Shown in pieces: positions 4,935-56,859 of a stretch of DNA of 64,000 nt. Below the pieces are notes generated by a model, which searched no databases, was not told where the DNA came from, and saw nothing but the letters and a program-made list of their open reading frames with translations. Source of the DNA: Candidatus Woesearchaeota archaeon (GTDB taxonomy: Archaea; Nanobdellota; Nanobdellia; Woesearchaeales; GW2011-AR15); the NCBI GenBank assembly GCA_016935095.1, contig JAFGRO010000021.1, forward strand, positions 916 through 64,915, written 5' to 3'. Within the stretch, counting starts at the first letter, position 1; each line of letters begins with the position of its first letter. The translations under genes and the position numbers were made by a program.

Positions 4935-4941
4935 TTTCAAT

Positions 4942-5145
4942 TCAAGAATAAAACTGTATTTTTTCCAGCACTTTATGCATTTCATAAATCAGTTTAAGAA
5001 TTTCCTGCTTGGCAACCCTGGCCTTTGTCCTGGTAATATCCAGTTCTTCTTTTGTTGAAATATCTTTATTCAGGATGTCCTTATAAAGATCTGACAATAA
5101 CTGGATTTTTTTGATTTTGTCTTCAATATAATTTAATTCTTTCAT
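4942..5145 (-). CDS. Small helical/coiled-coil hypothetical protein in pilus operon
   Basis: 67 aa; 4-nt ATGA overlap with the ATPase stop; fills the gap to the platform gene. Confidence 0.6.
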   Translation of the reverse strand: MKELNYIEDKIKKIQLLSDLYKDILNKDISTKEELDITRTKARVAKQEILKLIYEMHKVLEKIQFYS

Positions 5146-7510: not shown

Positions 7511-7520
7511 CTCAAATTTA

Positions 7521-8051: not shown

Positions 8052-8082
8052 AACTTATTTCACCTCTTTATTTAAAATGAAG

Positions 8083-8643: not shown

Positions 8644-9098
8644 TGAGCAATATCTTCTTTTTCAACTGATTGTTCCTGGCAAAATATCTCCTGTCCCTCC
8701 TTTTTTACAATGGGCGTTATTTTCACATTGCTCAATGTTCCTTGTTTCAATATATCAAAATCAATTTCTGTTTCATCAGGATACAGGCTAATTTCTTTTT
8801 CTTTTGACTCTGAATTCCCATATAAATCTATTAATCTAAAGTGTAGCTTTTCTATTTTTATATTCTGTGTATTAGTAATATTAATATATAAAATTTGTGA
8901 ATTTTGACATATTTCGTCAACATTAAATGAAACTCCCACGCAAAAAGATTCATCTGTCCTTTTTTCCAGGTCTTCACTGGATTTTTTTACCTGGGAAAGA
9001 GTCCAGTTATACATAAGCACTCCCAATAATATTACCAAAGCTATAATCATTACCCAGCTCACATATACCGAAATCCCCTTTTTTGTTATTTTTTTCAT
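8637..9098 (-). CDS. Archaeal type IV pilin-like protein
   Basis: MKKITKKG|ISVYVSWVMIIALVILLGVLM; ATG 9098 preferred over TTG 9110. Confidence 0.85.
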   Translation of the reverse strand: MKKITKKGISVYVSWVMIIALVILLGVLMYNWTLSQVKKSSEDLEKRTDESFCVGVSFNVDEICQNSQILYINITNTQNIKIEKLHFRLIDLYGNSESKEKEISLYPDETEIDFDILKQGTLSNVKITPIVKKEGQEIFCQEQSVEKEDIAQC

Positions 9099-9145
9099 GG
9101 TGAAAACCAATTATTTTAAATGAATGTAAGCGCACTGTCTAAAAA

Positions 9146-9658
9146 TCATTGGTCCCTGAACAAAAATTCTAATTTGATATTTTCCCCGGATGACACATTA
9201 AAGTAATATTCCTGGTCATCTATTTCCAATGTAAAATTATTTCCCAGATTTATTATTTTTTCAGTGTCCGGAGGCACTGAATAAACAAAATCAACGTTTG
9301 CCTCTGAGTTTAAATAATTTACTATTATTGCTTCATTATCAGGATATATTAAAACATATAAAATGCCCAGCTCTACATTTTTTGAGTCAGCGTATTCGAT
9401 AAAATCCAATGTGAAATTTTTAAATTGTTCAGATATATCTCTACTTTCATAGATAGCGCTGTTTATTACTTCAGAGCTTTCAATAAGATAATTTTCATAA
9501 AAAGACTGGAATTTTTTTGAGGGCTCTTCTACAGTTATTTTATTAACAGTCCCGACAAACACCACACTACACAAAATAATAGCAGCAAATATATAAAACT
9601 GGGCTCGTTTATCCATATTTCCAAACTCTTTGTCAAAAGGATTTAAAGGAATTTTCAT
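9146..9658 (-). CDS. Minor pilin-like protein with class III signal peptide
   Basis: DKRA|QFYIFAAIILCSVVFV. Confidence 0.7.
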   Translation of the reverse strand: MKIPLNPFDKEFGNMDKRAQFYIFAAIILCSVVFVGTVNKITVEEPSKKFQSFYENYLIESSEVINSAIYESRDISEQFKNFTLDFIEYADSKNVELGILYVLIYPDNEAIIVNYLNSEANVDFVYSVPPDTEKIINLGNNFTLEIDDQEYYFNVSSGENIKLEFLFRDQ

Positions 9659-12600: not shown

Positions 12601-13928
12601 CCGCAGCAAAAACCAGATGAGCAGGAAGTTCCCTGGGTACATTCATCATCAGCGCAATCTACATATGTATCTCCATCATCATCTACTCCATTATTACATA
12701 TTTCACTGCAAAAAGCAGTACAGTCTGCGTCATTACAGTCTGATTGGCCGTCACAGTCATTATCAATGCTGTCATCACAACTGGTTTCTGTCGGATATTC
12801 ATTCATACAATTATTTGCTGAATCAACACAATTATATCCTGAACCGCAACACGCTCCTGTACCTCCTGAACCCTGTTGCGTAGCTTCCCAGTGGTCTTCT
12901 CCAGAATCATCTCCGCAGCATTTTCCTGCTGAAGAGTCCCAGCAGCCAACTTCACCATCATTACAGGAACCCTGAGTCCCGGAAACGCCGCATTCGCATA
13001 TTGCTGAATAAGTATCAGCATCTGTCCTGTATGTCCCGTCTACACATGCTGAATAGCTTATGCCGTCGCACCAGTCATCAGAAGAACCGTCATCCCCGCA
13101 GCATTCTGACTGAGAGGAGTCCCAGCAGCCTGTTTCAGCATTGCCGCATGTTCCCTGCACACCGGATACACCGCATTCGCATACTGCTGCATAAGTATCT
13201 GCATCAGTACTATATGTCCCGTCTACACAGGCTGCATAGCTTATGCCGTCACACCAGTCATCAGAAGAACCGTCATCCCCGCAGCATTCCGCCTGAGAAG
13301 AGTCCCAGCAGCCTGTCTCAGCATTACCGCATGTACTTTGAGTTCCTGTCACTAAACATTCACATGCGCTTGAATAAGTATCCGGGTCTCTTCCACTACC
13401 TGAGCGGTCACAATCGCCTGTACCATCGCAATATCCCTGAGTTTCATAACCATAACCCACACCATATGCATTATTTGTATTTTCATTTGAGGTACATAAC
13501 CATATTGAGTTACATGGGCCTGTACCTGCAACTGATGGATCACACTGGCCAGAAGGAAGTGAACATTCTTGACATGTAGCACAGGGAATGCTTGGTGAGC
13601 ACTCACAATAATATAAATTAGAATTATCTCTATCAGCGTATGTTGTACCTGTATGAGTATGTGTAGCATCATTTGTATTGCTGCCCTGCACCCAGTTAAC
13701 ACTGTCATCTGTCCATGTATATCCCTGATACCAGCCTATTTTCTGGCAGTTAATTGTCCAGACACAGTTACAGGCATCAGGATCTGGCTGAGTAAAATCC
13801 ACAGAAACAGAACATTGTTTCACATTTATTCCATCAGGGTCTTCTACACCGCAATAAAATACTGCACCTTCAACAATTAATAAAACAGAAGTCAATAATA
13901 TAATTATTAAAAAAACTCTTAATTTCAT
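9672..13928 (-). CDS. Large secreted Cys/Asp-rich repeat surface protein (putative adhesin) with FN3/Ig-like C-terminal domains
   Basis: Signal peptide, Cys-rich N-half, EICNNGVDDDGDTYVDC-type Ca-binding motifs, and DTSPPSAP...W...D.ES / D.AGN patterns typical of FN3-like domains. First gene of the co-directional pilus run. Confidence 0.75.
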   Translation of the reverse strand: MKLRVFLIIILLTSVLLIVEGAVFYCGVEDPDGINVKQCSVSVDFTQPDPDACNCVWTINCQKIGWYQGYTWTDDSVNWVQGSNTNDATHTHTGTTYADRDNSNLYYCECSPSIPCATCQECSLPSGQCDPSVAGTGPCNSIWLCTSNENTNNAYGVGYGYETQGYCDGTGDCDRSGSGRDPDTYSSACECLVTGTQSTCGNAETGCWDSSQAECCGDDGSSDDWCDGISYAACVDGTYSTDADTYAAVCECGVSGVQGTCGNAETGCWDSSQSECCGDDGSSDDWCDGISYSACVDGTYRTDADTYSAICECGVSGTQGSCNDGEVGCWDSSAGKCCGDDSGEDHWEATQQGSGGTGACCGSGYNCVDSANNCMNEYPTETSCDDSIDNDCDGQSDCNDADCTAFCSEICNNGVDDDGDTYVDCADDECTQGTSCSSGFCCGSQCNINGGSCSCTSVSGIACIDGTCNTYGEPCCSSQFRRALQCSGTSLVCTNGDNLCEASCDSGVISQCDGHPSGYDIEQCNLASEAYFGDECSASCTAQEMGDNICRGTAYGADCTGSAFCNGRFKGDEDLNSDECCNNACQTVDCDNYDDTDKEDGILTESEVSGGTCIPSCTNGGCCDIQTVKCNSTNEFKYVHNLITNADELLNYICYNNGTAWKWGDPGEIDAEILTIHNMGLTGFEETNPEFTSVRTVYLELIYLPGTETCRYINFDNPSVRPGDDLDSWLDWENCNHERYWQLSENAGSKTVYVQINYSTGSQVVMNDSIYYNSSGAGLDTSPPSAPLITVGGYTNNNESIKIKWEPAYDYESVEILGIPIIYEVFIFDHNNVELGNTSTFETEYVFSGLNLAHGEEVTAEVSAVNSAGLKNTSTSEKIIIDLVPPYYISIVDYLFYDLATDTYKFLNEDDWFNTRTVQFTWVSDDADSRIGAYSYILSKSDKLPDDVPEGTIGNFQNEINHTFSGIPSGAYYFNVKSRDKAGNWRNNYDSYFVHIDNTLPSRPEIISEYFDALSQSITYTWSASDDQESGIADYMLNLTYEDGSPYRSIRVNDTSYPVTGAGSDTYIALIGAMNGAGIWRWSNQEEIITDFDPPEINTSLGGIIITQEPIIWISTNEKATCYYNHEGMDRKFAYTNSTYHEAKVKLAGAGSQVIYINCTDPYGNFDDSFSITLDVQPDYLVENVDIPDTLEIYQDQFVFFTLTVSDSLNRFLGGIYPDSFQVKLNDEEIDFSVFETGYGQYDISFISPSFEGDYIVQIYVNSNMSNDLNLDLKPLSLDIVYNPDEPIVPTASTRLVYYKDENGYFGLASEDENAQIDPSKINLSSNFNENLFIFSTRANANLNQKQKYLNKKDFLESINPSFGYTSAKKYFLNIILKYDDIDILVDQPIEIERTNKYIIKKTKSVSGRRTLYIDKLA
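12905..13390 (-). repeat. Intragenic tandem repeat, 183-nt (61-aa) period, about 2.7 copies
   Basis: ccgcagcatt recurs at 12913, 13096 and 13279; the unit encodes CEC.V.G.Q..CGNAETGCWDSSQ.ECCGDDGSSDDWCDGISY.ACVDGTY.TDADTY. Ends approximate. Confidence 0.9.
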
Positions 13929-14069
13929 AATGGTCCTCTTTTTTAAATTAATTTATTCTTTGGAATTTATTCTTTTTAAACTTTTCTTATAATCATTTAA
14001 ATTAAATCTGAATTATTTAAATCTTATTATGCAAAAATTAAATAAACTAAAATGCATTCAATTTAAATA

Positions 14070-43899: not shown

Positions 43900-44544
43900 A
43901 CCTCCTCTTGTGACTAAAGTCACAAGTATCCTTTAAGGGGCTCAAGCAACAGCGTGATGCTTTGCTTGGTTTAAAATGTATAAAACAATATCATTCAGTT
44001 GGTTGTAGCCAACTGTTACTGCTGTTCCACCTCTGCTCCATAGATGTGTCCTTATGGATATCTTAAACGACCTTTTGGATGGTTTTTAAAGAATGAATAA
44101 GCAGAACAACCTTTAAGAAGTTGAAATGCTTTTTCATCAGTCATTCCTTTAGGAAAAGTAACTAAGGTATGAATGTGATCAGGCATAACTGTTAAAACAT
44201 GAATTTTAATGTTATGTCGTTTGGCTGCTTTGCGAATGCAAGCTTCGCAAAGTTTTTCATATTTGAAATTGGCAAACATATTATAACGATATTTTGTCTG
44301 CCATGTCAAATGCCAAAAATTTATCCCAACTTTGTGGTTGTAATGTTCAAGTTCAATATTCACAAACTCCATTTTCGTTGCCTCCCGCAACGATTTTTTG
44401 GAGCTAACGCTAAAAAAATGTTAAAAAAAGTGCGCACGCCATTTTCGCTGCGTACTTTTTATTATTGAAAATGCTAAAAAAAAATTTAACGGAGATAAGC
44501 AAGGCAATTCCCCTACAGACTAAAGTCTGTATGAGTATCCTTGC
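43900..44544 (-). mobile_element. Defective IS200/IS605-family element (tnpA only, no tnpB)
   Basis: Related terminal hairpins cttgtgac-TAAA-gtcacaag (43907-43926) and tacagac-TAAA-gtctgta (44514-44531), both overlapping or followed by agtatcctt, bracket tnpA. Exact ends uncertain. Confidence 0.8.
43942..44390 (-). pseudogene. tnpA: IS200/IS605 Y1 (HUH) transposase, disrupted
   Basis: HLTWQTKYR, MPDHIH and LKGCSA, then TAA at 44052-44054. The C-terminus continues in another frame: HLWSRGGTAVTVGYNQLNDIVLYILNQAKHHAVA*, which contains the catalytic YxxxQ. Confidence 0.9.
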
Positions 44545-44552
44545 CTAAGAAA

Positions 44553-47500
44553 ATGAAATATGTCTTTTTTGTTGAAGGTAATAATTGCTTAGGCCATATA
44601 ACCAGGTGTTTAGTTCTTGCTGATTCAATAAAAAAAGCAGAGCCTGATTCAGAAATAGTTTTTCTTCTCAACTCAGAATTTACTTTGCCAATTGAGGAAC
44701 AAAAATTCAGGTTTATTAAATTAAAATTTGATAATCCTGATATTACAAGCAAAGGGGGGAATTTACCTGAAAAATTTTCAAAATTTATCCTGCCGGCAAT
44801 TATAGAAGAAAAACCTGATGTCCTTATTTTTGATACTTTTTTTTCTATAGATATTGTCAGGAATAAGCAATTGACAAATATAAAAAAGGTTTTGATTTTA
44901 AGGAAATATGAAGACAAGGAAATGAAAGTTTTTTTTAATTGTAATTTTTACAGAGACTTTGATTTAGTATTAGCGCCGCATGAAAGAAGAGAATTTGAAA
45001 ATCTTGAAAAAGAATATTCTGTTAAACTAAATACCCTTGATTTTATCGGGCCCCTTGTAAAAGACACTGCTTTTGACAACTCATATGATGATAAGAATAA
45101 CAAAGGATTTAAAATATTAGCTTTGTGCGGCGGCGGAGGGTTTGATGATGCAGAGAAATTTGTGAATTCCTGTATGGATATATATTATTTAACAAACAAG
45201 AAAATTGAAAATCTGAAATTTGAAATAATACCCGGGCCATTTAATAAGAGATTTGAAAATTTGAAAAATAAAAAAGAAACTAATCTTAAAATAAGCAGAT
45301 ATAAAACCAATGTCCTTAATTTAATGAATCAGGCTGACTTAATAATAAGCCAGGCAGGTTATAACACATCAAATGAAATTATTATTGCAAAAACTCCTGC
45401 AATAATCATGCCTCTTATAATTGACTATGATGATCAGCTTGAAAGAGCACTGAATCTGGAAAAATCAGGAATAGCTAAAGTTGTAAAAGACTATAATGCA
45501 AATGCTGCTGCTGAAATTTGTATAGAGCTTGCATTGGATAGAACTAAACTTGAAATTATGGAAGAAAATTTTAAAAAAATTAAATTTCATAGTGGAAATA
45601 AACAAGCTGCAGAGAAAATTATTAATTTAACTAAAATTAAAAAATATAAGTTAAGAATAAGTAATAAATGCAATAATAATTGCATTTTCTGCAGATACTT
45701 AAACATTAAGGCTAATCATGAAAAAAGCTGTGATGAAATTAAAAAAGAACTGGAAGAATTAAAAGAAAAAAATATCACTGAGATTATATTCCCCTGCAAT
45801 TCCGAGATTAGGAAAGATTTTTTTGAATTGTTGGAATACACTAAGAGGTTAGGATTCAGAATAATTCTGGAATCCAATGGCAGGATGTTTTTATATAGAG
45901 ATTTTTATGAAAAAGTGGCTGACTATGTTAATAAATTTGAAATATTTCTAAATTCAGGTAGATCAGAAACCAATGATAAAATTACGAATACAAAAGACAC
46001 TTTTAATCAGACAATCCAGGGGATAAAGAATATTGAGGGGAATATTCAGGTCAATACAGTCATCACAAGATATAATTATATGCATCTAAAAAATATTGCC
46101 TCGTTGGTAAAAAATTTAGGAGCTCAGGATATTAGGCTGATATTTCCTGTTTTGAAGAAGGAAAATGATCATATTCCAGAAGTTTTTGACTGCTATCAGA
46201 ATATTGATGAAGCCATTGAGTATGCAAAAAGCATTGGACTGAACATCATAACTGGTGAACTGTTTTACAATCCTTTTATCCCTGAGGATCTGAATCTGGA
46301 CTATGAAACCGCAGAGGTGATGTATGAATTTAAAATACCGCAAAATTCAGCAATTGTATTCAATAGGAACAAAATTGAAAGGACAAAGACGCTGATTTGG
46401 GAACTAACAGACACATGCAATTATGGTTGTTCTTATTGTACTTTAAATTTAAAAAGAAAGGAAAAAATAAGAATTAATGATTTTAAAGATGTAATAGAAG
46501 GATTAAAAAAACTTCAGGGCTCATGGAATATTGTGCTTTCCGGAGGAGAGCCATTGATTGTTGAAAATATTTCAGAGATAATAAATGATATAATAAAGAA
46601 AACAAAGCACACAATATCCATTGTGACAAATCTTTCACTGGGTGCAGACAAAACAATGAAAATTTTGGATATTCCCAATGACAGAATAGGTGAAATAACT
46701 GCCTCTTTACATTTGGAATACTGCAGCTATGATAATTTCCTGAAAAAAGCAAAAAAAATTAATAAGTTTCTCAGAAAAAAAGGCAAACAAATACATGTGG
46801 AATCTGTCGCGACAAAAGGAAACCTTGTAAAATTAAAAATGATTGGAAAAAAATTCATGAATAATGGAATTCATTTTCAACTTGAGCCTTTAAAAAAGAG
46901 TTATAATAACAAAGAGCATTACTTAAATTACGAAAGAAGTATTATTAAGGAATTCGGAAGAACCTATGGTTTAGATTCTGTAGATTTTTCTAACAAAAGG
47001 TGTTACGCAGGCATGAATTATTTTGTAATAGATAGCAAAGGAAATGCTTACCAATGCCACTCTGCAATGAAAGACGGTTATGGTTCTAACGGTTATCTGG
47101 GTAATTTTCACGATAGTACGTTTAATCTATCAGAATCACCCACAAGATGCATTTACAACTGTTGTGCATGTATTGTTCCTTCTGAGGCAAATATGATAGA
47201 AAATCCTTTTGACAGCAAAGGAGACAAAAAAGAGATAAGCATAATAATTCCAACTTATAACAGAAAAGATGTATTAGAGGTTAGTTTAACTTCTTTATTT
47301 TATCTAAATTATCCTAAAAATAAATATGAAATCATTATTGTTGATGATGGGAGCGATGATAATACTGTTGAGATGATAAAAAAACTTAAACCAAGCTGTA
47401 ATCTAAATTATATATATTGGCCAAGAAAGAAGCCTTATAGTTTCGGAAAAGCTGGCAATAGAGCAGGACCTGCAAGAAATATTGGAGCCAAATATGCTTC

Positions 47501-48047
47501 AGGAGAAATACTTCTTTTCATAGATTCAGATATAATTGCTGATCCAGATATTTTACAAAATTTAATCAAAGGATTCAATACAAATATAGTCTTTCTGGGT
47601 GTAAGGAAAGAACTAAAAAAATATCCTTTTACTAAAGACAAGATAAAAAGATTATTAAAAGAAAATAAATTTAGAGTTAGTGAAGATAAAGTTGAGTATA
47701 CACGCGTAAGTAAGCTTCTTAAAAAATTCAATTTCAATATAATGAATCATGAATTTCCATGGTTTCTCTTGATCTCCTGTATAGTGTTCATGGATAAAAA
47801 ATTATTTAATATGTATGGTGGATTTAGTAAGGATTTTGTATTCTGGGGATTTGAAGATCAGGAGTTTGCATACAGGCTCTCTAAAAACAAGGTTAAATTC
47901 AGTGTTAAAAAAAATGCTATTGGATATCATCAGCCACATGAAAAAGAATTTATCAACAAGGCAATATTTCTCAGAAATCAGGACATTCAAAAAAATATTT
48001 TTTATAAAAAACATCTAGATAAGGATATATATGAATTATATGAGTAG
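44553..48047 (+). CDS. Four-domain fusion: GT-B (GT28-like) glycosyltransferase, HxsC-like rSAM, rSAM with Cys-rich tail, GT2
   Basis: LGHITR...ADLIISQAGYNT; CNNNCIFC; CNYGCSYC/SGGEP...CYAG...C; IIPTYNR, DDGS, FIDSD and WGFED. ATG 44553 preferred because TTG 44541 lies in the IS end. Confidence 0.85.
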   Translation: MKYVFFVEGNNCLGHITRCLVLADSIKKAEPDSEIVFLLNSEFTLPIEEQKFRFIKLKFDNPDITSKGGNLPEKFSKFILPAIIEEKPDVLIFDTFFSIDIVRNKQLTNIKKVLILRKYEDKEMKVFFNCNFYRDFDLVLAPHERREFENLEKEYSVKLNTLDFIGPLVKDTAFDNSYDDKNNKGFKILALCGGGGFDDAEKFVNSCMDIYYLTNKKIENLKFEIIPGPFNKRFENLKNKKETNLKISRYKTNVLNLMNQADLIISQAGYNTSNEIIIAKTPAIIMPLIIDYDDQLERALNLEKSGIAKVVKDYNANAAAEICIELALDRTKLEIMEENFKKIKFHSGNKQAAEKIINLTKIKKYKLRISNKCNNNCIFCRYLNIKANHEKSCDEIKKELEELKEKNITEIIFPCNSEIRKDFFELLEYTKRLGFRIILESNGRMFLYRDFYEKVADYVNKFEIFLNSGRSETNDKITNTKDTFNQTIQGIKNIEGNIQVNTVITRYNYMHLKNIASLVKNLGAQDIRLIFPVLKKENDHIPEVFDCYQNIDEAIEYAKSIGLNIITGELFYNPFIPEDLNLDYETAEVMYEFKIPQNSAIVFNRNKIERTKTLIWELTDTCNYGCSYCTLNLKRKEKIRINDFKDVIEGLKKLQGSWNIVLSGGEPLIVENISEIINDIIKKTKHTISIVTNLSLGADKTMKILDIPNDRIGEITASLHLEYCSYDNFLKKAKKINKFLRKKGKQIHVESVATKGNLVKLKMIGKKFMNNGIHFQLEPLKKSYNNKEHYLNYERSIIKEFGRTYGLDSVDFSNKRCYAGMNYFVIDSKGNAYQCHSAMKDGYGSNGYLGNFHDSTFNLSESPTRCIYNCCACIVPSEANMIENPFDSKGDKKEISIIIPTYNRKDVLEVSLTSLFYLNYPKNKYEIIIVDDGSDDNTVEMIKKLKPSCNLNYIYWPRKKPYSFGKAGNRAGPARNIGAKYASGEILLFIDSDIIADPDILQNLIKGFNTNIVFLGVRKELKKYPFTKDKIKRLLKENKFRVSEDKVEYTRVSKLLKKFNFNIMNHEFPWFLLISCIVFMDKKLFNMYGGFSKDFVFWGFEDQEFAYRLSKNKVKFSVKKNAIGYHQPHEKEFINKAIFLRNQDIQKNIFYKKHLDKDIYELYE

Positions 48048-48270: not shown

Positions 48271-50970
48271 TCATGATAGGAATATACCTGGTTTTGCCAA
48301 AGGATCCATAGCATCGTACCTTCCATTGACAAGTTTTGCCGCAAACCTGCATCCTCCAAGACAACCATTTAAGTATTTGCACTCCTTGCATCTGTCCGGA
48401 AAGACCTTCAATTTTCTTATGTCTGCAGATAAACCGCAGGTCCAAGCTTTTTCTAATGGATCATTCAATATTCTTCCTATCTCTTCATTAATAGAATAAC
48501 AGGGTTTGATATTGCCGGAAGGATCAATAACAAGCTTATCAAATATTCCGCATATAGTTGCGCCTTTTGAAAAAAGTTTTACCTTCTCAGGTTCATATGC
48601 ACAAAAAGGGATTCCGTCAACAAATATTTCATCATACCTTTTAGTCAATAAAAGAAGCTTTTCAATCAATATCCTAACATCATCATTGTCAATAGGCATC
48701 TTATTATCAGCTGTCGGTACAGGCCTTGCCAAGAACCATTCAACCTCCATTTCACCTATCAGCCTGAAATATTTTTCCAGCTGATAAATATTGTCCTTTA
48801 TCAAGACAGTGTTTAGCCTAAAAGGAATATTGTTTTTATTAAGAGAAGTAATTAGCTTTTTTTTGAAAGAGACTTCATCCTGGTTTAGAGAATGAAACGG
48901 CAGAAGCATATAATCAACAATGCCCCTCAGTGCGGAAAAATCATTGATAAGTGTGCCATTAGTGTTAACCAAAGTATATAGTGATTTAGATTTGGCATAT
49001 TTCAATATTTCATATAAATCTTTCCTAAGAAATGGCTCACCTCCTGTGAATCTAATGTTCCTGACTCCTGAACTTGCGATTTTATCAATAATATCAAATA
49101 TCTTTTTTTTCGGTAAATCTGGCAGGTTTCTTGAAAAACTATTCTTATTATAACAGAAATTGCATTTAAGATTGCATCTGGAAGTTATTTCAAACTTGAT
49201 TTCGTATGGTTTGTCAATTATGGAGATGTTTTTGTTTTTATCTATCTTTACCAATTCTTTATATATTCCAGGATGAGGATGAACCACCTTGACCTCAATT
49301 TTTTCAACATCTGGCAATGAATAAATAGTCTCAAGAAGAGTCTCAGCATTTATAATGGTTAAAGGCAATATTATAGACACCTCCTTTCCTAGAGAAACAA
49401 TATTTTTTAAGCCAGTTATGGATTGAGATAATGTATTTTCTGTATCTGTCATAAAATCATTAATTTTATTATTCACTGCCGTAAAAAGAACAAAATAAAA
49501 ATTATCTACAAAATCAGCTGTCTTTTCACAAAATTGTCTATAACAAAACATTCGTCCATTTGTATACAAACTAATATTGAATCCCTGCCCTTTAGCAAAA
49601 GCCAGAATATCAACGAAGTCTTTTCTGATATCTGCATTGCAGGGAAATATAATTTCTGAAATACCCTTTTTCTTAAGATCTACAATTTCCTTTCTTATAT
49701 CCTCATAAGATTTGTCAAATAGTTCTTTGTCACCAAAGTCCGTGCAAAAAGTGCAATTATTATTGCAGATACTTCCACATTTAATCAAAGCAGGCTCAGT
49801 ATAGGTATCTTGAAGAGAATTTTCATTTATTCCCTGTTCTTCAGATAAAGTATTTTCTTTTAAGTGTATTTGCTGTATTGCTCCGATGGAGCAGACTTCT
49901 AGACAGCACAAACATTGTATGCATTTTTTTTTATTAATAATATATTTTCCGTGAGACTTTTTAATAGCATCTGCAGGGCAGGATTTAATACACGCACCAC
50001 ATAATTTACATTTTTCAGTAATCCATAATTCAAATGATTCTGTCGTTTTATTCAGCATTTTTTTATAAGATGAATGCTTCTTAAATGAATCTATTGCTTG
50101 CAATCTCTGACCATAAATTTTTATTTTTCTAAAGTCATTAGTACCAAACCCCCGAAGTGCTGCATATCTTGATGTTAATATTTTGGAAGGTGTGTGTCCT
50201 GTTAATTTTGATGCGACTGTATCAATGGCCACAGCATCTTCTGATGTAATAATATAGCCTATCTTAACTGGTAAACCTGTTGTAGGACCTCCCTCGCCTT
50301 CCATTGCAACAACTGCATCCATAATATTAAGCTTTATCTTAGGCCGGATAAAAGAAAAAACATCAACGATTGCCTGATTGAAGTCTGTTATATCCTTGAT
50401 TAGACTGTCCAAGCATTTCCTTCCTTCAGGAGATAAAAAACCAATACAGTTTTTTATCGCACCTGTCAAATATGTTATTGAATGGGACTTGAGTTTTGGA
50501 AGATTTATTATTACATCCGCATCAAAATATGCTTCTGCAAAACCTGTTTTATTCAGTACCACACTATCTTTAATATATTTTTCCACAAATCCTTCATACT
50601 GAAAATCCCTGAAAGAGGAATTAGTATCCTGGATAATTTTTTTAATTCCTGTCTTTTCAATGGCCTCTTTGGGGCTTCCTGAAAGAGTTGATGCTGTCTG
50701 TTCGCCAACATAAACATAAGGCGTGATTTCTTTTACCAGTTCTATGACTGCTCTAATTAAAAGTGGATGAGTAACTGCAGCTTTTTCAGGAGTTCTGCAA
50801 GTACATATATTCGGTTTTATAAGTACTTTATCTTTTTGTTTTACATATTTATTCAATCCTCCAAGCAAATCTAAGGATTTTTGGATAGCTTTTTTTATAT
50901 TCTTATATCCATCACATTTCACTAATGCTAAATCTGACATCATGATATTGTTAATACATGTTTTATCCAT
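48271..50970 (-). CDS. Fusion: DUF362-like domain, 2x[4Fe-4S] ferredoxin, HxsC-like rSAM, rSAM/SPASM
   Basis: VLIKPN...THP, INLPKLKSH..TGAIKN, D.VAID; CKLCGACIKSCP and CIQCLCCLEVC; CNNNCTFC; CNLKCNFC/TGGEP with CKECKYLNGCLGGC. Confidence 0.85.
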   Translation of the reverse strand: MDKTCINNIMMSDLALVKCDGYKNIKKAIQKSLDLLGGLNKYVKQKDKVLIKPNICTCRTPEKAAVTHPLLIRAVIELVKEITPYVYVGEQTASTLSGSPKEAIEKTGIKKIIQDTNSSFRDFQYEGFVEKYIKDSVVLNKTGFAEAYFDADVIINLPKLKSHSITYLTGAIKNCIGFLSPEGRKCLDSLIKDITDFNQAIVDVFSFIRPKIKLNIMDAVVAMEGEGGPTTGLPVKIGYIITSEDAVAIDTVASKLTGHTPSKILTSRYAALRGFGTNDFRKIKIYGQRLQAIDSFKKHSSYKKMLNKTTESFELWITEKCKLCGACIKSCPADAIKKSHGKYIINKKKCIQCLCCLEVCSIGAIQQIHLKENTLSEEQGINENSLQDTYTEPALIKCGSICNNNCTFCTDFGDKELFDKSYEDIRKEIVDLKKKGISEIIFPCNADIRKDFVDILAFAKGQGFNISLYTNGRMFCYRQFCEKTADFVDNFYFVLFTAVNNKINDFMTDTENTLSQSITGLKNIVSLGKEVSIILPLTIINAETLLETIYSLPDVEKIEVKVVHPHPGIYKELVKIDKNKNISIIDKPYEIKFEITSRCNLKCNFCYNKNSFSRNLPDLPKKKIFDIIDKIASSGVRNIRFTGGEPFLRKDLYEILKYAKSKSLYTLVNTNGTLINDFSALRGIVDYMLLPFHSLNQDEVSFKKKLITSLNKNNIPFRLNTVLIKDNIYQLEKYFRLIGEMEVEWFLARPVPTADNKMPIDNDDVRILIEKLLLLTKRYDEIFVDGIPFCAYEPEKVKLFSKGATICGIFDKLVIDPSGNIKPCYSINEEIGRILNDPLEKAWTCGLSADIRKLKVFPDRCKECKYLNGCLGGCRFAAKLVNGRYDAMDPLAKPGIFLS

Positions 50971-51204
50971 TTATTTTAATAGGAAATTGGAGTATATATT
51001 TAAAAAAATCCTTTAATCCTCAAACTTAAAAGTACAGATAGTTGCAAGCAGTGCAATTTACACATGATAATTCTCTTCCTGTCCACCTGTTCAAGGAAAA
51101 TACAAAAATACCTCTTAAAATTGAGAGATAATATGTGTTGAAATGCAAAAAAGTGTAGATATCTCTTTGCTGAATTGAATTAATAAATATGAGACTAATT
51201 AGTA

Positions 51205-51597
51205 CTAGTAGCTTGCATGGCTGCCGTGGCTGCTGTGGCTACCGTGGCTGCTGTGGCTGCCGTGGCTGCTGTGGCTGCTGTGGCTGCCGTGGCTGCCGTG
51301 GCTGCCGTGGCTGCCGTGACTGCTGTGACTGCCGTGACTGGCGTGACTGGCGTGGCTGCTGTGGCTGGCGTGATGTGTGTGTGTTGCTGTGACTGTACAG
51401 GACGTGGCTGTACAACTTCCCCCCAATACAATCGTTCCTGCTTTTACCTCTTTTGCACTCAGAACAGCTGAAATTGCCGCTGTGCCAATAAAAGTTCCAA
51501 GAGTAAATAAAGAATGCTTTGATATATTCCCCTCTTCATTCATTATAAAAGAAGATATTTTTTTCTTAATTTTAGGCAACACGCTCTTTTTTGGCAA
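51205..51597 (-). CDS. hxsA: His-Xaa-Ser repeat precursor peptide (HxsA-like) with prepilin-like hydrophobic leader
   Basis: 18 consecutive H-[AGS]-S triplets, then Tyr-stop. TTG start with GAGGT SD upstream. Directly downstream of HxsB/HxsD homologs. Third-position variants (AGC/AGT, GGC/GGT, CAC/CAT) are synonymous in this frame. Confidence 0.9.
   Translation of the reverse strand: MPKKSVLPKIKKKISSFIMNEEGNISKHSLFTLGTFIGTAAISAVLSAKEVKAGTIVLGGSCTATSCTVTATHTHHASHSSHASHASHGSHSSHGSHGSHGSHGSHSSHSSHGSHSSHGSHSSHGSHASY
51211..51372 (-). repeat. 9-nt tandem repeat x18 encoding (His-Xaa-Ser)18
   Basis: Plus-strand units such as gctgccgtg, gctgctgtg and actggcgtg, counted directly; 162 nt. Confidence 0.97.
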
Positions 51598-51648
51598 TTT
51601 CAGGTACCTCTAAATAAAATTACAAATATTACCAATAAAAGCCATTAT

Positions 51649-51663
51649 ATTTATAATTTTTTC
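51649..51663 (-). promoter_or_regulatory. BRE/TATA-like promoter dedicated to the HXS precursor
   Basis: The minus strand reads gaaaaaa-ttataaat about 52 nt upstream of the TTG, between the hxsB stop and the precursor start. Confidence 0.5.
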
Positions 51664-51680
51664 TAATTAGAAAAAGAAAA

Positions 51681-53099
51681 TCACAGCTTATAAGGGGTTT
51701 TTAATTTTCCTTTTTTAAGATTTTCATTAAATTTAGTGTCAAAAATAATCTTTTCAAATAAATAATCAAACTGTCCTTTTAAAATCCTGCACCTGAAATC
51801 TGTTGCAAGCTTCGGGATCAGGTTTCCTGTGGACATATAACAGTTTACAGGGCACAAACCACAATAAGGCTGGTATGTACATGAATTGCACAAACAGGCA
51901 TCATTAACAGATGATGAAATTAAGCTACATGTTTTCTCAGAACATAGGACTTCCCTATAACTGTTTTCAAAAACAGTACCAAGCTTAAAAATTTCTTCAC
52001 CAACCATCCGTCCTTCATCACAACTGTAAATACTGCCATTAAACTGGTAAGCCAGCTGGCCAATTGCCGCGCCGCAGGGACTCATCAAATCTAAGTACAT
52101 AGGATCTTCTTTAGTCATGATTTTCAATAACATGTATAAACTCGAAACCTCGATTATATTATCTTGCAAATAAACATAATCAATTATTTTTTTCCAGAAT
52201 TCAAGATATTCCTCTGGAGAGTATGAGATTTTTTTCCATATATTTAATGCATATCCAAGATTATTAAGGAATCTGATCCATAATCTGGATAGTTTTAAAC
52301 TCTGATATGCATCAATTATTTCCATAGGGTATTTTAAAGAATTTTTAGTAGTAACCATCAATGCATTTATACCTATTTTATTTCTTTTTTTTATTGCTTT
52401 TATCCATTTTATTACATCAGGATAAGAGCTTCCCCTGTTTAATAATTTCCTGTTGAAATCATGTACTATTTTCGGCCCGTCTAATGAAGTGCATATACCA
52501 ACTTTATTATCTTCTAAAAATTTCAGGATTTCATCATTCATCAAGGTTAGGTTAGTTACAATTGAAAACCTTAAATCTTTCTTATATTCTGAATTGAGCT
52601 TTTTAGCATAATTTATAATGAATTTTACAATATCAAAATTAACCAGAGGCTCGCCTCCCTGGAATTCAATTGTAAGGGCATTTGAAGGGGCCTGAAAAAT
52701 AAATTCAACTGTTTTTTGAGCTGTTATTTTGTCCATATCATATTCTTTTTTAGATATGTGTTTAGAGGCTGAATGGCAATAAACGCATGCCATATTGCAT
52801 CTAAGTGTTACTACAATTATATGCAGTGATGTTCCCTGAAAAAGCTGCCTTTTTTTCCTTTTATAAGAGTCTACAATCATGTCAAAATTATTTTTAGTTA
52901 GAATAATTCCCTTTTCTTCCAGATTGAGATATAATTCTTCAGTTAGAGTATGCCCCATTAGTTTTGCATATTCTTCTCTTTTCAGAGCAGCCCAAGAGCC
53001 GGAATCTGTCACTATTAAAATCCTGTCCCTGATTTTTTTGGTCTTAATATTATTCAGCTTATAATCAGAAAGAATTTTTCTCCCGTTAATAAATTGCAT
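51681..53099 (-). CDS. hxsB: His-Xaa-Ser system radical SAM/SPASM maturase HxsB
   Basis: TSLHIIVVTLRCNMACVYC, IEFQGGEPL, TSLDGP..HD.NR, DLMSPCGAAIGQLAY...YSCDEGRM and C..C.YQPYCG.CP, all characteristic of HxsB. Confidence 0.9.
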   Translation of the reverse strand: MQFINGRKILSDYKLNNIKTKKIRDRILIVTDSGSWAALKREEYAKLMGHTLTEELYLNLEEKGIILTKNNFDMIVDSYKRKKRQLFQGTSLHIIVVTLRCNMACVYCHSASKHISKKEYDMDKITAQKTVEFIFQAPSNALTIEFQGGEPLVNFDIVKFIINYAKKLNSEYKKDLRFSIVTNLTLMNDEILKFLEDNKVGICTSLDGPKIVHDFNRKLLNRGSSYPDVIKWIKAIKKRNKIGINALMVTTKNSLKYPMEIIDAYQSLKLSRLWIRFLNNLGYALNIWKKISYSPEEYLEFWKKIIDYVYLQDNIIEVSSLYMLLKIMTKEDPMYLDLMSPCGAAIGQLAYQFNGSIYSCDEGRMVGEEIFKLGTVFENSYREVLCSEKTCSLISSSVNDACLCNSCTYQPYCGLCPVNCYMSTGNLIPKLATDFRCRILKGQFDYLFEKIIFDTKFNENLKKGKLKTPYKL

Positions 53100-53337
53100 T
53101 TTGCATTAATCCTAATACATAATTATAAAAGTCATAACCTAAATTATTTATATCAATTTCTTTGGATTTAGGCTTTAAATTTACTGAAATTTGGTCATTC
53201 TTGTCTCCGTCCATAAATATCCAGCAGCTTTCAGTAAAGTCCTTAGAAGCAGCTAAAATTGCAGCAAAACCATAAAACCTTGTATCAAAATTCAGTTTAA
53301 CTTCATTCTTTTTTTTGTCAATAATAAGTTTATTCAT
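53086..53337 (-). CDS. Short HxsD-like protein
   Basis: Likely start ATG 53337 overlapping the upstream stop (ATGAATAA), 83 aa. FDTRFY...AIL.A...F...C.I...LKPK...LGYDFYNYVL parallels the neighbouring HxsD. Confidence 0.65.
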   Translation of the reverse strand: MNKLIIDKKKNEVKLNFDTRFYGFAAILAASKDFTESCWIFMDGDKNDQISVNLKPKSKEIDINNLGYDFYNYVLGLMQNAIY

Positions 53338-53851
53338 TGTCATTGCATGAATCACTTTCGTCCTTTTCCTGATCTTTGCCATATTTTTCTTCCCAGGGCA
53401 CTGCAATTCCAAGAGGATCATCAATATAATCCAGACCATCACTATCTGAATCATCATCATTTGTATCAACTTTATCATCGTCTGAACCTGGCTCTTCAAA
53501 TTCATCAATCAGATTGGTTGCAAGTGCTTTGCTAACAATTGCTTCTTTCACAGGTCTTGTTTTTTCTGAATTGATACTAAAAACAGCATAGTTAAGAAGT
53601 TCATTATTAAAATCCCTTCCAAGAGATTCAATATCCTGTGGATTTTTAGGCCTGAGCTCTACAATGATTTCTTCTTCGGGATCTCCTCCTAATAAGATAT
53701 ATGCCCTGTCTAAAAAAATATAACATGCAGAATAAACAATGTCCAGTGGATAAAAAACAGGATTCACCGAAACTGCTACATAACCCTCTTCATCATGTAA
53801 CTCAAGATTGTCTATTTTTCTTGTTTTGAAAGAAGATTCTTCTGAACTCAT
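53330..53851 (-). CDS. hxsD: His-Xaa-Ser system protein HxsD-like, with acidic C-terminal tail
   Basis: YPLDIVYSACY.F.DR...FNNELLNY.......T..VKE.IV..AL; tail DDPLGIAVPWEEKYG. ATG 53851 follows a G-rich SD. Confidence 0.8.
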   Translation of the reverse strand: MSSEESSFKTRKIDNLELHDEEGYVAVSVNPVFYPLDIVYSACYIFLDRAYILLGGDPEEEIIVELRPKNPQDIESLGRDFNNELLNYAVFSINSEKTRPVKEAIVSKALATNLIDEFEEPGSDDDKVDTNDDDSDSDGLDYIDDPLGIAVPWEEKYGKDQEKDESDSCNDNE

Positions 53852-53888
53852 TTTCCCCCCCACTTGTTTCTAGTTATCAGATATAAAA

Positions 53889-55025
53889 TTAATTTATAAA
53901 GCTTTCCAATAATTGTCTGAGAAATATTAAAAAATTTCCCCTGCACAGCAAGGTGATAATTACGCCTATGAACATGGATACGGCAAAGTGAATCTTTTCA
54001 TGTATAAAGATAATATGCTCTTTAATTTTTCCTCCTGAATGCAGAGTATTTATCTTTTTTACATCTTCTTTTGTAAGGGACTTGTAATTATCAAGGATAG
54101 TCTCCTTTTTCTGGAATGCTTCAAAAATACTATTAACAAATGAAATTGAGGTTTCTTTTTTTTTAGTGTATTCTCCCTTACTTTCAATTATATCCTCTGC
54201 CAGGCACATTCCCTGCTTTAATGATTCAATATAAATTGGTTTTGAAAAAGCAATAAAAGAGAGATTTAAGACAAAATATCTCAGCAAAACAAAGAAGAGA
54301 AACAGCATTAAGAAATTTATTAAAAAAGTTAAGCTAAATATATTCTGAAAATCAAACACAAATCTGATAATCGAGAGCAAGAATCCTATTGCTGTCATAT
54401 TAATATTCAGAATATTTGTAAAGAAAAGCATTAATATCAAAATAAATATTACATTGAATACCATTGTTGACTGTATTTTCAGGAATTGTAATACTGCTGT
54501 GGTTATTGTATAAAATCCAAAAAGGAATATTGCCGAGCTGAACAAAAATTTCGGGTCTAATACAAGTATAAATTGTCTCAACAGAATCTTAAATTTTATT
54601 TTAAAGATTATTTTTACTATAAAATACAAAAAAACAGGGGTGACTGTGTTTATAAGGAGGATATAAGACGGAAAATACCCTGTATTGCCCCATTTATAAA
54701 CTGATAACGGCACAAGCGCGGCATAAGCTAAAAATAATTTTGCATCTCCGGGAGCCCAGAGATTAGAGAGCCATAAAAAAAATCCAAAAACCAATGAGAT
54801 CAGGATATTAATAAAATAGATTTTTATATAGTCTATATTTATTTCTGTCCCTTTACTCTTTAAATAGAAAATAGCAATGAGCAGGCTTAATACAGAGCTT
54901 AAAATTGCAATAACAACCCATTTGTTCCTGATTTTATTGTATTTCAGGTCCTGGTAAGAGGTTATTATTCCAAAGACAATAATTATTATAATATTTATTG
55001 ATTCAAATATTGTAAAATAATCCAT
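53889..55025 (-). CDS. A24-family prepilin/preflagellin peptidase (GxGD aspartic protease)
   Basis: SYQDLKYNKIRN (first Asp) and WAPGDAKL (GxGD-type); polytopic, with an archaeal-type C-terminal region (L..GM.LAE...LT.EDV...HFA..MFIG). Confidence 0.85.
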   Translation of the reverse strand: MDYFTIFESINIIIIIVFGIITSYQDLKYNKIRNKWVVIAILSSVLSLLIAIFYLKSKGTEINIDYIKIYFINILISLVFGFFLWLSNLWAPGDAKLFLAYAALVPLSVYKWGNTGYFPSYILLINTVTPVFLYFIVKIIFKIKFKILLRQFILVLDPKFLFSSAIFLFGFYTITTAVLQFLKIQSTMVFNVIFILILMLFFTNILNINMTAIGFLLSIIRFVFDFQNIFSLTFLINFLMLFLFFVLLRYFVLNLSFIAFSKPIYIESLKQGMCLAEDIIESKGEYTKKKETSISFVNSIFEAFQKKETILDNYKSLTKEDVKKINTLHSGGKIKEHIIFIHEKIHFAVSMFIGVIITLLCRGNFLIFLRQLLESFIN

Positions 55026-55153: not shown

Positions 55154-55825
55154 ATGAAAAAAAACAAAAAGATCTCACTTGTTATCCCGACTCTTAACGA
55201 GGAAAAAAACATTGCATTTCTTTTAAAAAAAATTCCGGGATATATTGACGAGATAATAATTGTAGACGGATATTCCAGAGACAGGACAGTTGCTGTTGCA
55301 AAGAAATTTAATTGCAGAATGTTCTTTGACAAATTCGGCAAAGGCTCTGCAATAACAAAAGGGATTAAAAAAAGCAAAGGGGATTTTATAATCATCATGG
55401 ATGCTGATTTATCCCATAAAACAGATGAAATAAATCTTCTTATTAATGGTTTGCTAAAAGGATATGATGTAACAATGGGATCAAGGTTCATTAAAGGAGG
55501 TGGCAGCAGGGATATTTCTTTTATCAGGGTAATGGGAAATAAATTTTTTGTCATCCTTGTAAACTTCCTGTTTAGAGCAAAATATACAGATCTATGTTAT
55601 GGGTACCGTGCTTTTAAAAGAGAATCTGTTAATGTCCTTAACCTCAAAAGCAAAGGATTTTCAATTGAAACAGAAATTTCTATTAAATGCGCAAAAAAAA
55701 AACTAAAGGTCCTGGAAATCCCGAGTTTTGAAAAAAAGAGGAGATTCGGCAAAGGGAAACTAAGGGCTATAGAAGACGGACTTAAAATTATGGAAACAAT
55801 AATTAAAGAGGTAGTAAACAGATGA
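55154..55825 (+). CDS. GT2 glycosyltransferase (polyprenol-phosphate glycosyltransferase-like)
   Basis: VIPTLNEE, VDGYS.D.T, GKG.A, MDADLSH, GSRF and TDLCYGYRAF motifs. Confidence 0.92.
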   Translation: MKKNKKISLVIPTLNEEKNIAFLLKKIPGYIDEIIIVDGYSRDRTVAVAKKFNCRMFFDKFGKGSAITKGIKKSKGDFIIIMDADLSHKTDEINLLINGLLKGYDVTMGSRFIKGGGSRDISFIRVMGNKFFVILVNFLFRAKYTDLCYGYRAFKRESVNVLNLKSKGFSIETEISIKCAKKKLKVLEIPSFEKKRRFGKGKLRAIEDGLKIMETIIKEVVNR

Positions 55826-56859
55826 GAAGATTATCTTATTTTTCATTAAATATCATAAAAGCAAACTTTGGTTTAAATAAAAGGCCGTTTAAACTAAATC
55901 TTTTTATTACAAAAGACTGCAATTGCAGGTGTAAAGCATGCAGTATATGGAAAAAAAAAGAAAGTAATGAATTAAATAATCAGGAACTGCAAAGATTTTT
56001 TAAAAAGAACAGTTATTTTTCATGGATTGACATAACCGGCGGTGAGATTTTTTTACGCAAAGACATAATTGAAATTTTTGAAATCATAATAAACAGCAAT
56101 AAAAATCTTTATTTACTGCATTTTCCGACAAACGGGATATTAACTGAGAAGATTATTGAAACAGTAAAAAAAATATTTTCAATATATAATAAAAAATTAA
56201 TAGTCACAGTCAGCATTGACGGCCCTGAGAAATTGCATGATTATATGCGCGGGAAAAAAGGCACATGGAAGAAAGCAGTAGAGACCTTTAAAAAAATAGA
56301 TTCCATAAAAAAAGGCATTGCTTATATTGGTTTTACTTCTTCTGAATATAATTCAGGAAAACTGAAAGAGACATATACTGCCTTAAAAAAAGAATTGCCT
56401 TTCCTTACTTATGACCAAATTCACATAAATCTGGCACAGAATTCAGAAATATATTATATGAAAAGAGATATAGATACTATGCACAATAAAAAAGAAAAGC
56501 TGAAAGATATTGATTTGTCAATCACAAGCAAAAAGATCGGATTTAATCCTTTTTCTTATTTTGAAAAAAAATATCTGGTATTGCTGAAAAAATTCCTGGA
56601 AACAGGGGAATATCCGTTTGCAATATGCAGTGCGCTTAACAGCACAATTACAATTAATCCCGAGGGAGATATTTATCCGTGCCTGTTTTTTAATAAAAAG
56701 CTTGGGTCTATTAGAGAAACAAATTATAATCTAGATTCTGTTTTTGACAAGAAAAGAAGAGAATTAAAAAAAAATATTTTAAAGCATTGTCCCAACTGCT
56801 GGTCCGCATGTGAAGCCTATCCTTCATTAATATCAAGAATATATGATCGTTTTTTTTAG
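55822..56859 (+). CDS. Radical SAM protein with SPASM/twitch-type C-terminal domain
   Basis: CNCRCKAC, TGGE, SIDGP..HD, CSA...INPEGDIYPC...CPNCWSAC; ATGA overlap with the GT2 gene. Confidence 0.88.
   Translation: MRRLSYFSLNIIKANFGLNKRPFKLNLFITKDCNCRCKACSIWKKKESNELNNQELQRFFKKNSYFSWIDITGGEIFLRKDIIEIFEIIINSNKNLYLLHFPTNGILTEKIIETVKKIFSIYNKKLIVTVSIDGPEKLHDYMRGKKGTWKKAVETFKKIDSIKKGIAYIGFTSSEYNSGKLKETYTALKKELPFLTYDQIHINLAQNSEIYYMKRDIDTMHNKKEKLKDIDLSITSKKIGFNPFSYFEKKYLVLLKKFLETGEYPFAICSALNSTITINPEGDIYPCLFFNKKLGSIRETNYNLDSVFDKKRRELKKNILKHCPNCWSACEAYPSLISRIYDRFF

Follow-up and report, generated by a model that had tools for sequence, protein, structure and literature searches.

According to the main text of Li et al. 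(Nat Commun 2026; PMC13128918), the bacterial HXS system, HxsD-HxsB-HxsC-HxsA, acts in antiphage defence and exports its HxsA, which carries a +8 Da modification on an S-H-R-S-S motif and undergoes a non-canonical N-terminal cleavage that depends on prior radical-SAM modification and for which that text names no protease. Four-gene systems account there for more than 99.8% of the total, with 99.7% in Pseudomonadota; this main text nowhere uses the words archaea, peptidase, protease or prepilin, and its supplements may list rare architectures. Passages of PMC9062424 mention HxsB. Among the papers we searched, none linked a prepilin peptidase with a radical S-adenosylmethionine (SAM) enzyme and a precursor peptide, or with ribosomally synthesized and post-translationally modified peptides (RiPPs) and archaea, and the names HxsA4, HxsA3, HxsC4 and HxsD-like were not found in them; a single one mentioned His-Xaa-Ser together with archaea. 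Here we analyse an Hxs locus in a 64,000-nucleotide stretch of an assembly of Candidatus Woesearchaeota archaeon (GCA_016935095.1, contig JAFGRO010000021.1, positions 916 to 64,915; hereafter the window), in which five co-directional minus-strand genes between 51205 and 55025 encode an A24 peptidase, HxsD, a short HxsD-like protein, HxsB and a precursor. We read it as an archaeal, Woesearchaeota/DPANN-type variant of the Hxs system in which a dedicated, divergent A24 aspartyl peptidase is a regular fifth component and would act as leader peptidase, and we put the probability of this reading at roughly 0.6.

A divergent A24 peptidase in an archaeal Hxs locus

An earlier sequence-only reading of this DNA had placed and oriented the five genes, and all five hold. 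The first, at 53889..55025, encodes a 378-aa FlaK-like divergent paralogue of the A24-family aspartyl peptidases with a cytoplasmic Arc_PepC domain (Pfam, 34.2 bits against a cut-off of 23.4) and putative catalytic residues D26 and D94. It is followed by HxsD (177 aa, 53330..53863), borderline with 49.6 bits against the TIGR03976 cut-off of 50, and by the short HxsD-like protein at 53086..53343, for which the listed open reading frame (ORF) spans 53086-53508 with a start probably at an ATG near 53343; residues 72-135 of the listed ORF match NF038315 (HxsD_rel) at 41 bits, equal to the cut-off of 41. HxsB, a 472-aa radical SAM/SPASM maturase (51681..53099), reaches 429 bits against a TIGR03978 cut-off of 370. 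The last gene, at 51205..51597, encodes a precursor of 130 aa composed of a leader, a hydrophobic stretch, an AxA-like site and a His-Xaa-Ser core; with 66.1 bits against the NF038313 cut-off of 55 it is a member of the curated NCBIfam family HxsA4, not an unclassified peptide.

The peptidase is a divergent member of its family. Peptidase_A24 scores 21.8 bits by hmmscan, below the cut-off of 26.5, and 30.4 bits, above it, in a six-frame genome search; no NCBIfam model matches the protein. The motif around its second Asp, described in the sequence-only reading as GxGD, in fact reads W90-A-P-G-D94, and across the clade of its relatives, which we call the paralogue, this motif is [ST]-A-G-D, A-A-D or P-G-D, against G-G-G-D in canonical neighbours. 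D26 and D94 are invariant in all 30 paralogues of a 30-row alignment and align with the Asp residues of canonical A24 enzymes, an invariance that argues for catalysis. The two types also differ in signature and length: paralogues read TSYEDIKxGKIRNKW ... W[ST]AGD[AG]KLF, measure about 340-390 aa and carry Arc_PepC, whereas canonical enzymes read DIKxREVPDW ... QWGGGD[AS]K, measure about 285 aa and gave a weak Arc_PepC_II match in one member only. A maximum-likelihood tree of 71 rows separated 21 canonical from 50 paralogue rows with a Shimodaira-Hasegawa-like approximate likelihood-ratio (SH-aLRT) support of 100; it came from a quick search in which several long branches were flagged and from which a 244-aa fragment (L104:8333-9067) was excluded. 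Judged by its residues and by this tree, the window peptidase is a member of a distinct A24 subclade, a dedicated paralogue and not an ordinary pilin peptidase.

An AlphaFold2 model of the peptidase, with a predicted local distance difference test score (pLDDT) of 87.6 and a predicted template modelling score (pTM) of 0.83, locates D26 where the first helix ends and D94 where the fourth begins. A Foldseek search of this model against the PDB returned nothing at E<=0.001, and phmmer with the peptidase sequence against the PDB gave only a chance match (E 0.029); the missing structural match to a solved A24 enzyme probably reflects the limited power of the method for helical membrane proteins. 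In public records, relatives of the peptidase are named "hypothetical protein", "A24 family peptidase C-terminal domain-containing protein" or "CpaA".

Linkage of the paralogue to Hxs genes across the phylum

We surveyed 401 genomes of the phylum, the window's own and 400 others, calling HxsB at 320 bits or more and the paralogue at E<=1e-8 with the window peptidase as query; the genomes are related, and counts on them overstate independence and significance. Peptidase_A24 was matched in 387 of the 401 genomes, mostly once, and the paralogue in 48, the window's own included. Among the 400 other genomes, the paralogue occurs in 39 of the 49 with HxsB and in 8 of the 351 without it, and in one of these 8 (G295) HxsB is cut by a contig end. 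Four of the 10 HxsB genomes that lack a paralogue match hold divergent members of the clade, three in the HxsB locus itself (G104, G010, G084) and one elsewhere (G361). The sequence-only reading had staked its case on an association of A24 and Hxs genes in other genomes, and such an association is present. Records of close relatives of HxsB and the peptidase are labelled Candidatus Woesearchaeota or Nanoarchaeota; a search with the HxsB protein alone returned 2 related loci, and one record, the contig of G332, bears the label Methanosarcinales.

Gene order follows the same pattern. We examined 52 loci around HxsB or HxsB-like radical SAM genes, two short contigs, and 18 loci around paralogues away from HxsB, scanning them with profiles iterated from the window proteins. 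Of 49 paralogue genes, 29 abut HxsD (within 300 bp, same strand), and these span 23 GTDB family labels and at least two orders, the other order being represented by two genomes. Seven more are no further than 1.5 kb from HxsD, HxsB or a precursor: three are divergent from HxsD at up to 1.3 kb, one abuts HxsB, and three lie beside a precursor, two at 35 bp and one at 1.2 kb. The remaining 13 include four at contig ends, two next to a repeat protein (G318, G150) and two next to an archaellin gene (G364, G389). Where HxsB is missing from the locus the peptidase still follows HxsD (L087-L090), and where HxsB lies elsewhere it follows the precursor (L082, L095, and L093 with HxsB on another contig). 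Because the same gene order recurs across many genomes, the adjacency of peptidase and Hxs genes is more than chance.

The rest of the module recurs as well. In 51 of 53 loci HxsB has an HxsD homologue no more than 1.5 kb away, and in most loci a 61-104-aa homologue of the short HxsD-like protein sits between HxsD and HxsB. Clustering of 28 neighbourhoods recovered the peptidase in 28, HxsD in 26 and radical SAM proteins in 25; no other family was this widespread, and no pilus ATPase, platform or signal peptidase gene belonged to the conserved neighbourhood of these 28 loci. Of the 38 HxsB loci flanked on either side by 3 kb or more, 21 hold both the paralogue and a leader-type precursor, 3 the leader only, 4 the paralogue only and 10 neither; in each of the 3 leader-only cases the genome has a paralogue elsewhere. 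A scan for His-rich or motif-bearing small ORFs in the leaderless or HxsB-HxsC-like loci (L052-L056, L059, L062-L064, L066, L067, L069-L072, L074, L077, L079, L081, L083 and others) found no convincing precursor.

Some further neighbours were observed. In 12 of the 28 clustered loci (for example L048:5677-6276) the gene immediately upstream of the paralogue encodes RNase P p30, which probably reflects inherited synteny rather than function. Most Hxs genomes hold both A24 types, and in L046 (G311:C2) the two share a locus, with the paralogue beside HxsD (10095-11264) and, about 1.1 kb from it, a canonical A24 enzyme of 285 aa (12403-13260). In G318 and G150 (L053:14400-14897, minus strand; L067:1-183, plus strand) the paralogue adjoins another kind of His-rich repeat protein, which is truncated at the contig end and built of units like N-C-T-H-N-S-E-T-G-T-A; lying 9-12 kb from HxsB, it may be another type of precursor.

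Family scans found no stand-alone HxsC (TIGR03977 or NF038332) beside the window HxsB. Directly downstream of the precursor, at 48271..50970 on the minus strand, is an 899-aa fusion of DUF362 (Pfam, 157 bits), a 4Fe-4S dicluster/ferredoxin domain and two radical SAM domains (Radical_SAM, 105.7 bits), residues 395-529 of which match HxsC4 (NF038332) weakly, at 64 bits against a cut-off of 500. It is a possible stand-in for HxsC, of uncertain membership in the Hxs system. A plus-strand radical SAM/SPASM gene at 55822-56859 scores 50 bits against an HxsC cut-off of 267.9. The module as a whole stands amid many radical SAM genes: besides these two, the window holds a 1168-aa plus-strand fusion of a glycosyltransferase and two radical SAM domains at 44541-48047, and similarly radical-SAM-rich surroundings occur in L036, L037, L046, L058 and L094, some loci having four to six such genes in series. 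PADLOC 2023, a release that comes without Hxs models, returned viperin-like radical SAM matches only.

The precursor leader and its candidate cleavage sites

The window precursor begins with a leader whose conserved core, residues 8-27 (P-K-I-K-K-K-I-S-S-F-I-M-N-E-E-G-N-I-S-K; 51517..51576, minus strand), was delimited in a 29-row alignment of the first 60 residues. The consensus of that alignment is P-K-I-K-K-K-x-x-S-F-L-x-x-E-x-G-K-I-S-K, with E21 (51535-51537) and K27 (51517-51519) invariant and G23 (51529-51531) conserved in at least 90% of rows. Locus scans gave 37 leader hits, the window's included, and whole-genome leader searches in 10 genomes gave 5 more. In the leaders that carry the motif, the Gly position is Gly in 34 of 36 and Ala in 2 of 36, so that the conservation of the leader Gly on which the sequence-only reading had also relied is borne out; the residues before it follow E-[EDTSKQ]-G, an acidic motif. 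Residues 7-53 match HxsA3 (NF038309) below its cut-off, and the classic HxsA model TIGR03979 does not match the window precursor. Nine relatives' precursors, and one repeat protein with them, all fall short of the HxsA3 and HxsA4 cut-offs (best 52.8 against 55), so the precursor family is wider than the curated models.

After G23 the window precursor continues with N-I-S-K and only then with 21 uncharged residues, H28-A48; the hydrophobic segment that the sequence-only reading had seen behind the Gly is thus present, set back by four residues. The stretch and its c-region (residues 29-53; 51439..51513, minus strand) end in K-E-V-K-A (49-53), which holds a small-x-small site. Across precursors the hydrophobic stretch measures 11-21 aa, with a median of 18.5 residues for the uncharged stretch, and by eye nearly all 37 leader hits end it with an AxA-like small-x-small motif such as N-A-A-A, V-Q-A, S-A-S-A or V-K-A. 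The His-Xaa-Ser repeat core read from the window sequence, residues 73-130 (51208..51381, minus strand), ends in S-H-A-S-Y; the precursor has 18 H-x-S motifs. Elsewhere the cores, about 30 to over 200 residues long, are without a pilin-like globular domain and end in Tyr or Trp in 21 of 37 family members, often as H-x-S-[YW]. Overlapping ORFs on both strands at 51189-51471, respectively Ala/Val-rich, Cys/Arg-rich and Gln/Pro-rich, are frame artefacts of the His-Xaa-Ser repeat DNA.

The precursor ORF starts with TTG at 51597. The Shine-Dalgarno sequence of its own that had been ascribed to it is there, as GAGGT 8 nt upstream; the TATA-like box is a real A/T-rich stretch that carries little weight, because the genome has 30% G+C. 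A promoter and terminator scan of this A/T-rich region was uninformative, with 35 promoter-like sites against 21.6 expected. An alternative GTG start at 51582 would bring the precursor N-terminus closer to those of its relatives.

A Sec signal consists of a positive n-region, an h-region of about 10-20 residues and a small-x-small (-3/-1) site for signal peptidase I. The HxsA4 N-terminus has this layout, with an n-region that is unusually long (25-35 residues) and conserved, and we read it as a Sec-type signal whose long n-region would double as a recognition leader. An archaeal signal peptidase I is present in the genome (75.4 bits against 51.85), which strengthens the caveat, already attached to the sequence-only reading, that V-K-A could be a signal peptidase I site. 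The twin-arginine translocation (Tat) route was considered for the precursor and rejected: the leaders contain no R-R, and TatC was not found in the genome, an assembly of 1.77 Mb in 82 contigs that is 95.45% complete. The degenerate Tat motif once suspected in the leader is accordingly unlikely.

The idea from which this analysis started was that the peptide, cleaved after G23 and modified, is matured like a pilin and stays membrane-anchored or polymerises into a filament displaying its His-rich tail. The neighbouring protease is of prepilin-peptidase type, the putative -1 position holds a conserved Gly or Ala, Glu occupies +5 in some members (K-I-S-K-E), and the genome encodes a pilus ATPase and platform. 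Class III signals, however, have Gly or Ala at -1 in a short N-terminal leader, a basic residue just before the cut and a hydrophobic helix from about +1, and of these features the HxsA4 leader has only the Gly or Ala at the putative -1 position: the residues before the Gly are acidic and the helix does not begin at about +1. The +5 Glu is not conserved, and the window, whose lack of it had been noted from the start, has His; the hydrophobic stretch is short and closes with an AxA-like site; the cores have no pilin-like globular domain; and the conserved neighbourhood, in which no families besides peptidase, HxsD and radical SAM reach 25 of 28 loci, lacks ATPase and platform genes. A leader with the look of a Sec signal and an extended, conserved n-region gives a pilin-like filament no support, and we consider such a filament very improbable. 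What survives of the original proposal is the functional tie between A24 peptidase and HxsA leader, for which comparative genomics and a model of the complex both speak.

That model, of the peptidase with the leader, scored 0.63, against 0.01 for the best of three controls. In a calibration that is rough, since our own alignments were used, 58 of 80 solved complexes and 2 of 110 mismatched pairs reached this mark. Runs agreed in at least 90% of contacts and the partner had a pLDDT of at least 70. On the peptidase side the predicted interface includes residues 26 and 88-95, in which both Asp regions fall; on the leader side it takes in residues 16-45, of which 30-45 pack against helix 121-135 of the peptidase, with F17 close to P92 and K27 to residue 345. 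The model supports binding of the leader by the peptidase and a placement of leader residues 16-29 at the active-site face, without fixing the scissile bond. A putative cut after G23 would leave K/N-I-S-K..., the h-region and the AxA site, an ordinary signal peptide. Alternatively, the cut may fall at a semi-conserved K-[TA]-G just before the h-region, which has the better class III geometry; this position reads F-T-L-G in the window and is Ala or Ser in many members, and the sequences favour neither candidate.

A different job for the peptidase is also conceivable. It might act after signal peptidase I, in the manner of a signal-peptide peptidase, clearing or recycling the long membrane remnant of leader and signal, or serve mainly as a membrane dock that brings HxsD, HxsB and precursor to the translocon, its proteolysis being secondary. 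A24 enzymes are GxGD proteases, as are signal-peptide peptidases, and the Sec-like precursor with its 25-35-residue n-region, the predicted packing on helix 121-135 and a clade member in which the second Asp is missing would all suit such a role. Both Asp residues are nonetheless invariant in the 30 aligned members and nothing distinguishes the order of cuts; we know of no A24 enzyme reported in remnant clearing or docking of this kind, and hold this role to be unlikely.

Variants of the precursor were seen in two places. G181 encodes two fusion proteins (L091:11605-12207 and L104:10843-11463, both minus strand) that combine in one chain a domain like HxsD, an HxsA-type leader, a hydrophobic stretch and a Cys/Gly-rich core free of H-x-S repeats. 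Neither the HxsD-like domain nor the leader attains its cut-off; the fusions suggest that HxsD may contact or bind the leader. The same genome has three paralogue matches, and of the two full-length copies in L091 one carries His at the position of the second catalytic Asp. Genus g113 encodes leader-like proteins that have Ala where other leaders have Gly and, towards the C-terminus, H-G-N-H-[YF]-N-H (L127:7961-8416, L130:7768-8151, L131:7759-8118, L129:7363-8214); they do not lie beside HxsB, and the paralogue is absent in three of the four genomes.

Proposed maturation model and relation to known systems

Several observations weigh against a dedicated leader peptidase. The leader departs from class III signals in its acidic residues before the Gly and in the spacer of 4-12 residues (median 9) with 1-3 Lys between the Gly and the hydrophobic stretch, which counts against a pilin-like substrate as well. 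One paralogue, the G181 copy L091:8005-9123 from outside the 30-row alignment, has His at the second Asp position. Three genomes of one genus (G378, G351 and G192, two of them single contigs) have HxsB and leader-like proteins (E-E-D-A-K-V-I-D-K) and no paralogue; their two A24 genes are of other kinds and far from the Hxs genes. No leader-type precursor was seen in the 4 paralogue-only HxsB loci with at least 3 kb of flank, a pattern found in 7 of all 53 HxsB loci, three of the 7 being truncated by the end of a contig. Sec and signal peptidase I, acting at the conserved AxA-like site, could alone suffice for maturation. In G364 and G389 the paralogue adjoins not Hxs genes but an archaellin gene, which it precedes by 127 bp (L097:9173-9784, plus strand, and L096; Arch_flagellin, 106 bits); HxsB and a leader-type precursor lie on another contig in both genomes.

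The point closest to home is that the Hxs-linked peptidase is the only A24 enzyme found in the window's genome. A canonical A24 profile built from 21 sequences, run with filters off against all six-frame ORFs of the assembly, matched this gene only, at 25 bits; G376, the source of the closest peptidase relative (42% identity), and G233 likewise have a single weak A24 match. The window itself contains a type IV pilus-like locus on the minus strand, with a T2SSF platform (3147-4985), a T2SSE ATPase (5142-6692) and, at 6782-9658, four or five pilin-like genes whose N-termini are of the canonical class III kind; they read KKG|VSPLIATVLLIAF at the cut, with V-S-P-L-I-A-T-V-L-L-I-A-F after K-K-G, basic before the cut and with the helix directly after it. 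Since the peptidase is the sole A24 enzyme found and this locus is present, the peptidase may here also, or instead, serve the pilins: either a canonical A24 gene lies in the missing 5% of the genome, or the paralogue processes pilins too. Next to the pilin genes is a minus-strand ORF of 1418 aa (9672-13928) with a signal-like N-terminus and no Pfam match, and the stretch 12001-14000 has 43% G+C, against about 30% elsewhere.

Together with the AxA-like sites, the signal peptidase I of the genome and the two archaellin neighbours, these facts would fit a housekeeping prepilin or prearchaellin peptidase that adjoins Hxs genes by accident, with HxsA matured by Sec and signal peptidase I alone. 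The distribution speaks against it. The usual A24 enzyme of the phylum, where 387 of 401 genomes have an A24 match, is a different protein of about 285 aa; the window's type is restricted to 48 genomes, tracks HxsB (39/49 against 8/351) and in 23 families has copies directly next to HxsD (29 of 49); both types coexist in most Hxs genomes, within a single locus in G311; and the complex model favours leader binding. We therefore regard a purely housekeeping role as improbable, more so than remnant clearing or docking.

For the dedicated leader peptidase that we prefer, the following sequence of events can be proposed. The HxsA4 precursor would be made with its long conserved leader and recognised in the cytoplasm by HxsD, the HxsD-like protein and HxsB; by analogy with the bacterial system HxsB, perhaps together with an HxsC-like domain, would then modify the C-terminal His-Xaa-Ser core. 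The short hydrophobic stretch would enter the membrane and dock on the peptidase, which would cut off the cytoplasmic leader within E-x-G-x-[IV]-x-K, the bond between G23 and N24 being one candidate. Signal peptidase I would finally cut the AxA-like site on the outer face, which would set the modified His-rich peptide free at the cell surface. Its biological role might be that of an antiviral surface barrier, by analogy with bacteria. In a more specific and bolder version, to which we give somewhat less than even odds, the A24 clade was recruited in DPANN as a dedicated Hxs leader peptidase that cuts a new site, between E-x-G and K-I-S-K, set back from the helix, and so couples cytoplasmic maturation to export.

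If dedicated leader cleavage is true, this would be the first A24 prepilin-type peptidase assigned to RiPP-like maturation, and the substrate rules of A24 enzymes would be wider. The bolder version would, in addition, provide a "missing protease" logic for the way in which bacterial HXS is processed non-canonically at its N-terminus, and the secreted His-rich product might then be an archaeal antiviral surface barrier. With a candidate protease in its operon, the archaeal variant makes testable the N-terminal cleavage step of the bacterial antiphage effector, left unexplained in the main text of PMC13128918. The five-gene module, the leader motif and the peptidase signature make recognisable a set of proteins now annotated as "hypothetical" or "CpaA". 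A question is raised, too, as to how pilins are processed in this genome, G376 and G233, where the only A24 enzyme found is Hxs-linked.

With the bacterial HXS system the locus shares the HxsB radical SAM/SPASM enzyme, HxsD and a His-Xaa-Ser-repeat precursor with an N-terminal export signal; it differs in having no stand-alone HxsC and no peptidoglycan-binding domain, and adds the short HxsD-like gene, a different conserved leader and the co-encoded A24 peptidase. Curated NCBIfam models cover parts of it: the window precursor and the short HxsD-like protein reach HxsA4 and HxsD_rel, respectively, and HxsC4 (NF038332) is the best match, at 148-163 bits, of the radical SAM gene that follows HxsB in L039, L062 and L069. 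Like the archaeal A24 enzymes FlaK, PibD and EppA, the peptidase is a polytopic membrane protein whose two Asp residues fall where transmembrane helix 1 ends and, within xGD, where helix 4 begins, and it has an Arc_PepC soluble domain, matched also in a Methanocaldococcus control. Its clade departs from them in reading xAGD or PGD instead of GxGD, and KIRN instead of EVPD after the first Asp, in being linked to Hxs rather than to pilus or archaellum genes, and in a presumed substrate with an acidic pre-Gly motif and a charged spacer. RiPP clusters, finally, have dedicated leader peptidases of their own, for example the peptidase-containing ABC transporters. As in these, a protease is co-encoded here with a maturase and a leader-bearing precursor that conserves a small leader residue, Gly; in contrast to them, the window enzyme is an intramembrane-type aspartyl peptidase of the A24 family, not a cysteine or serine protease, and has no transporter domain.

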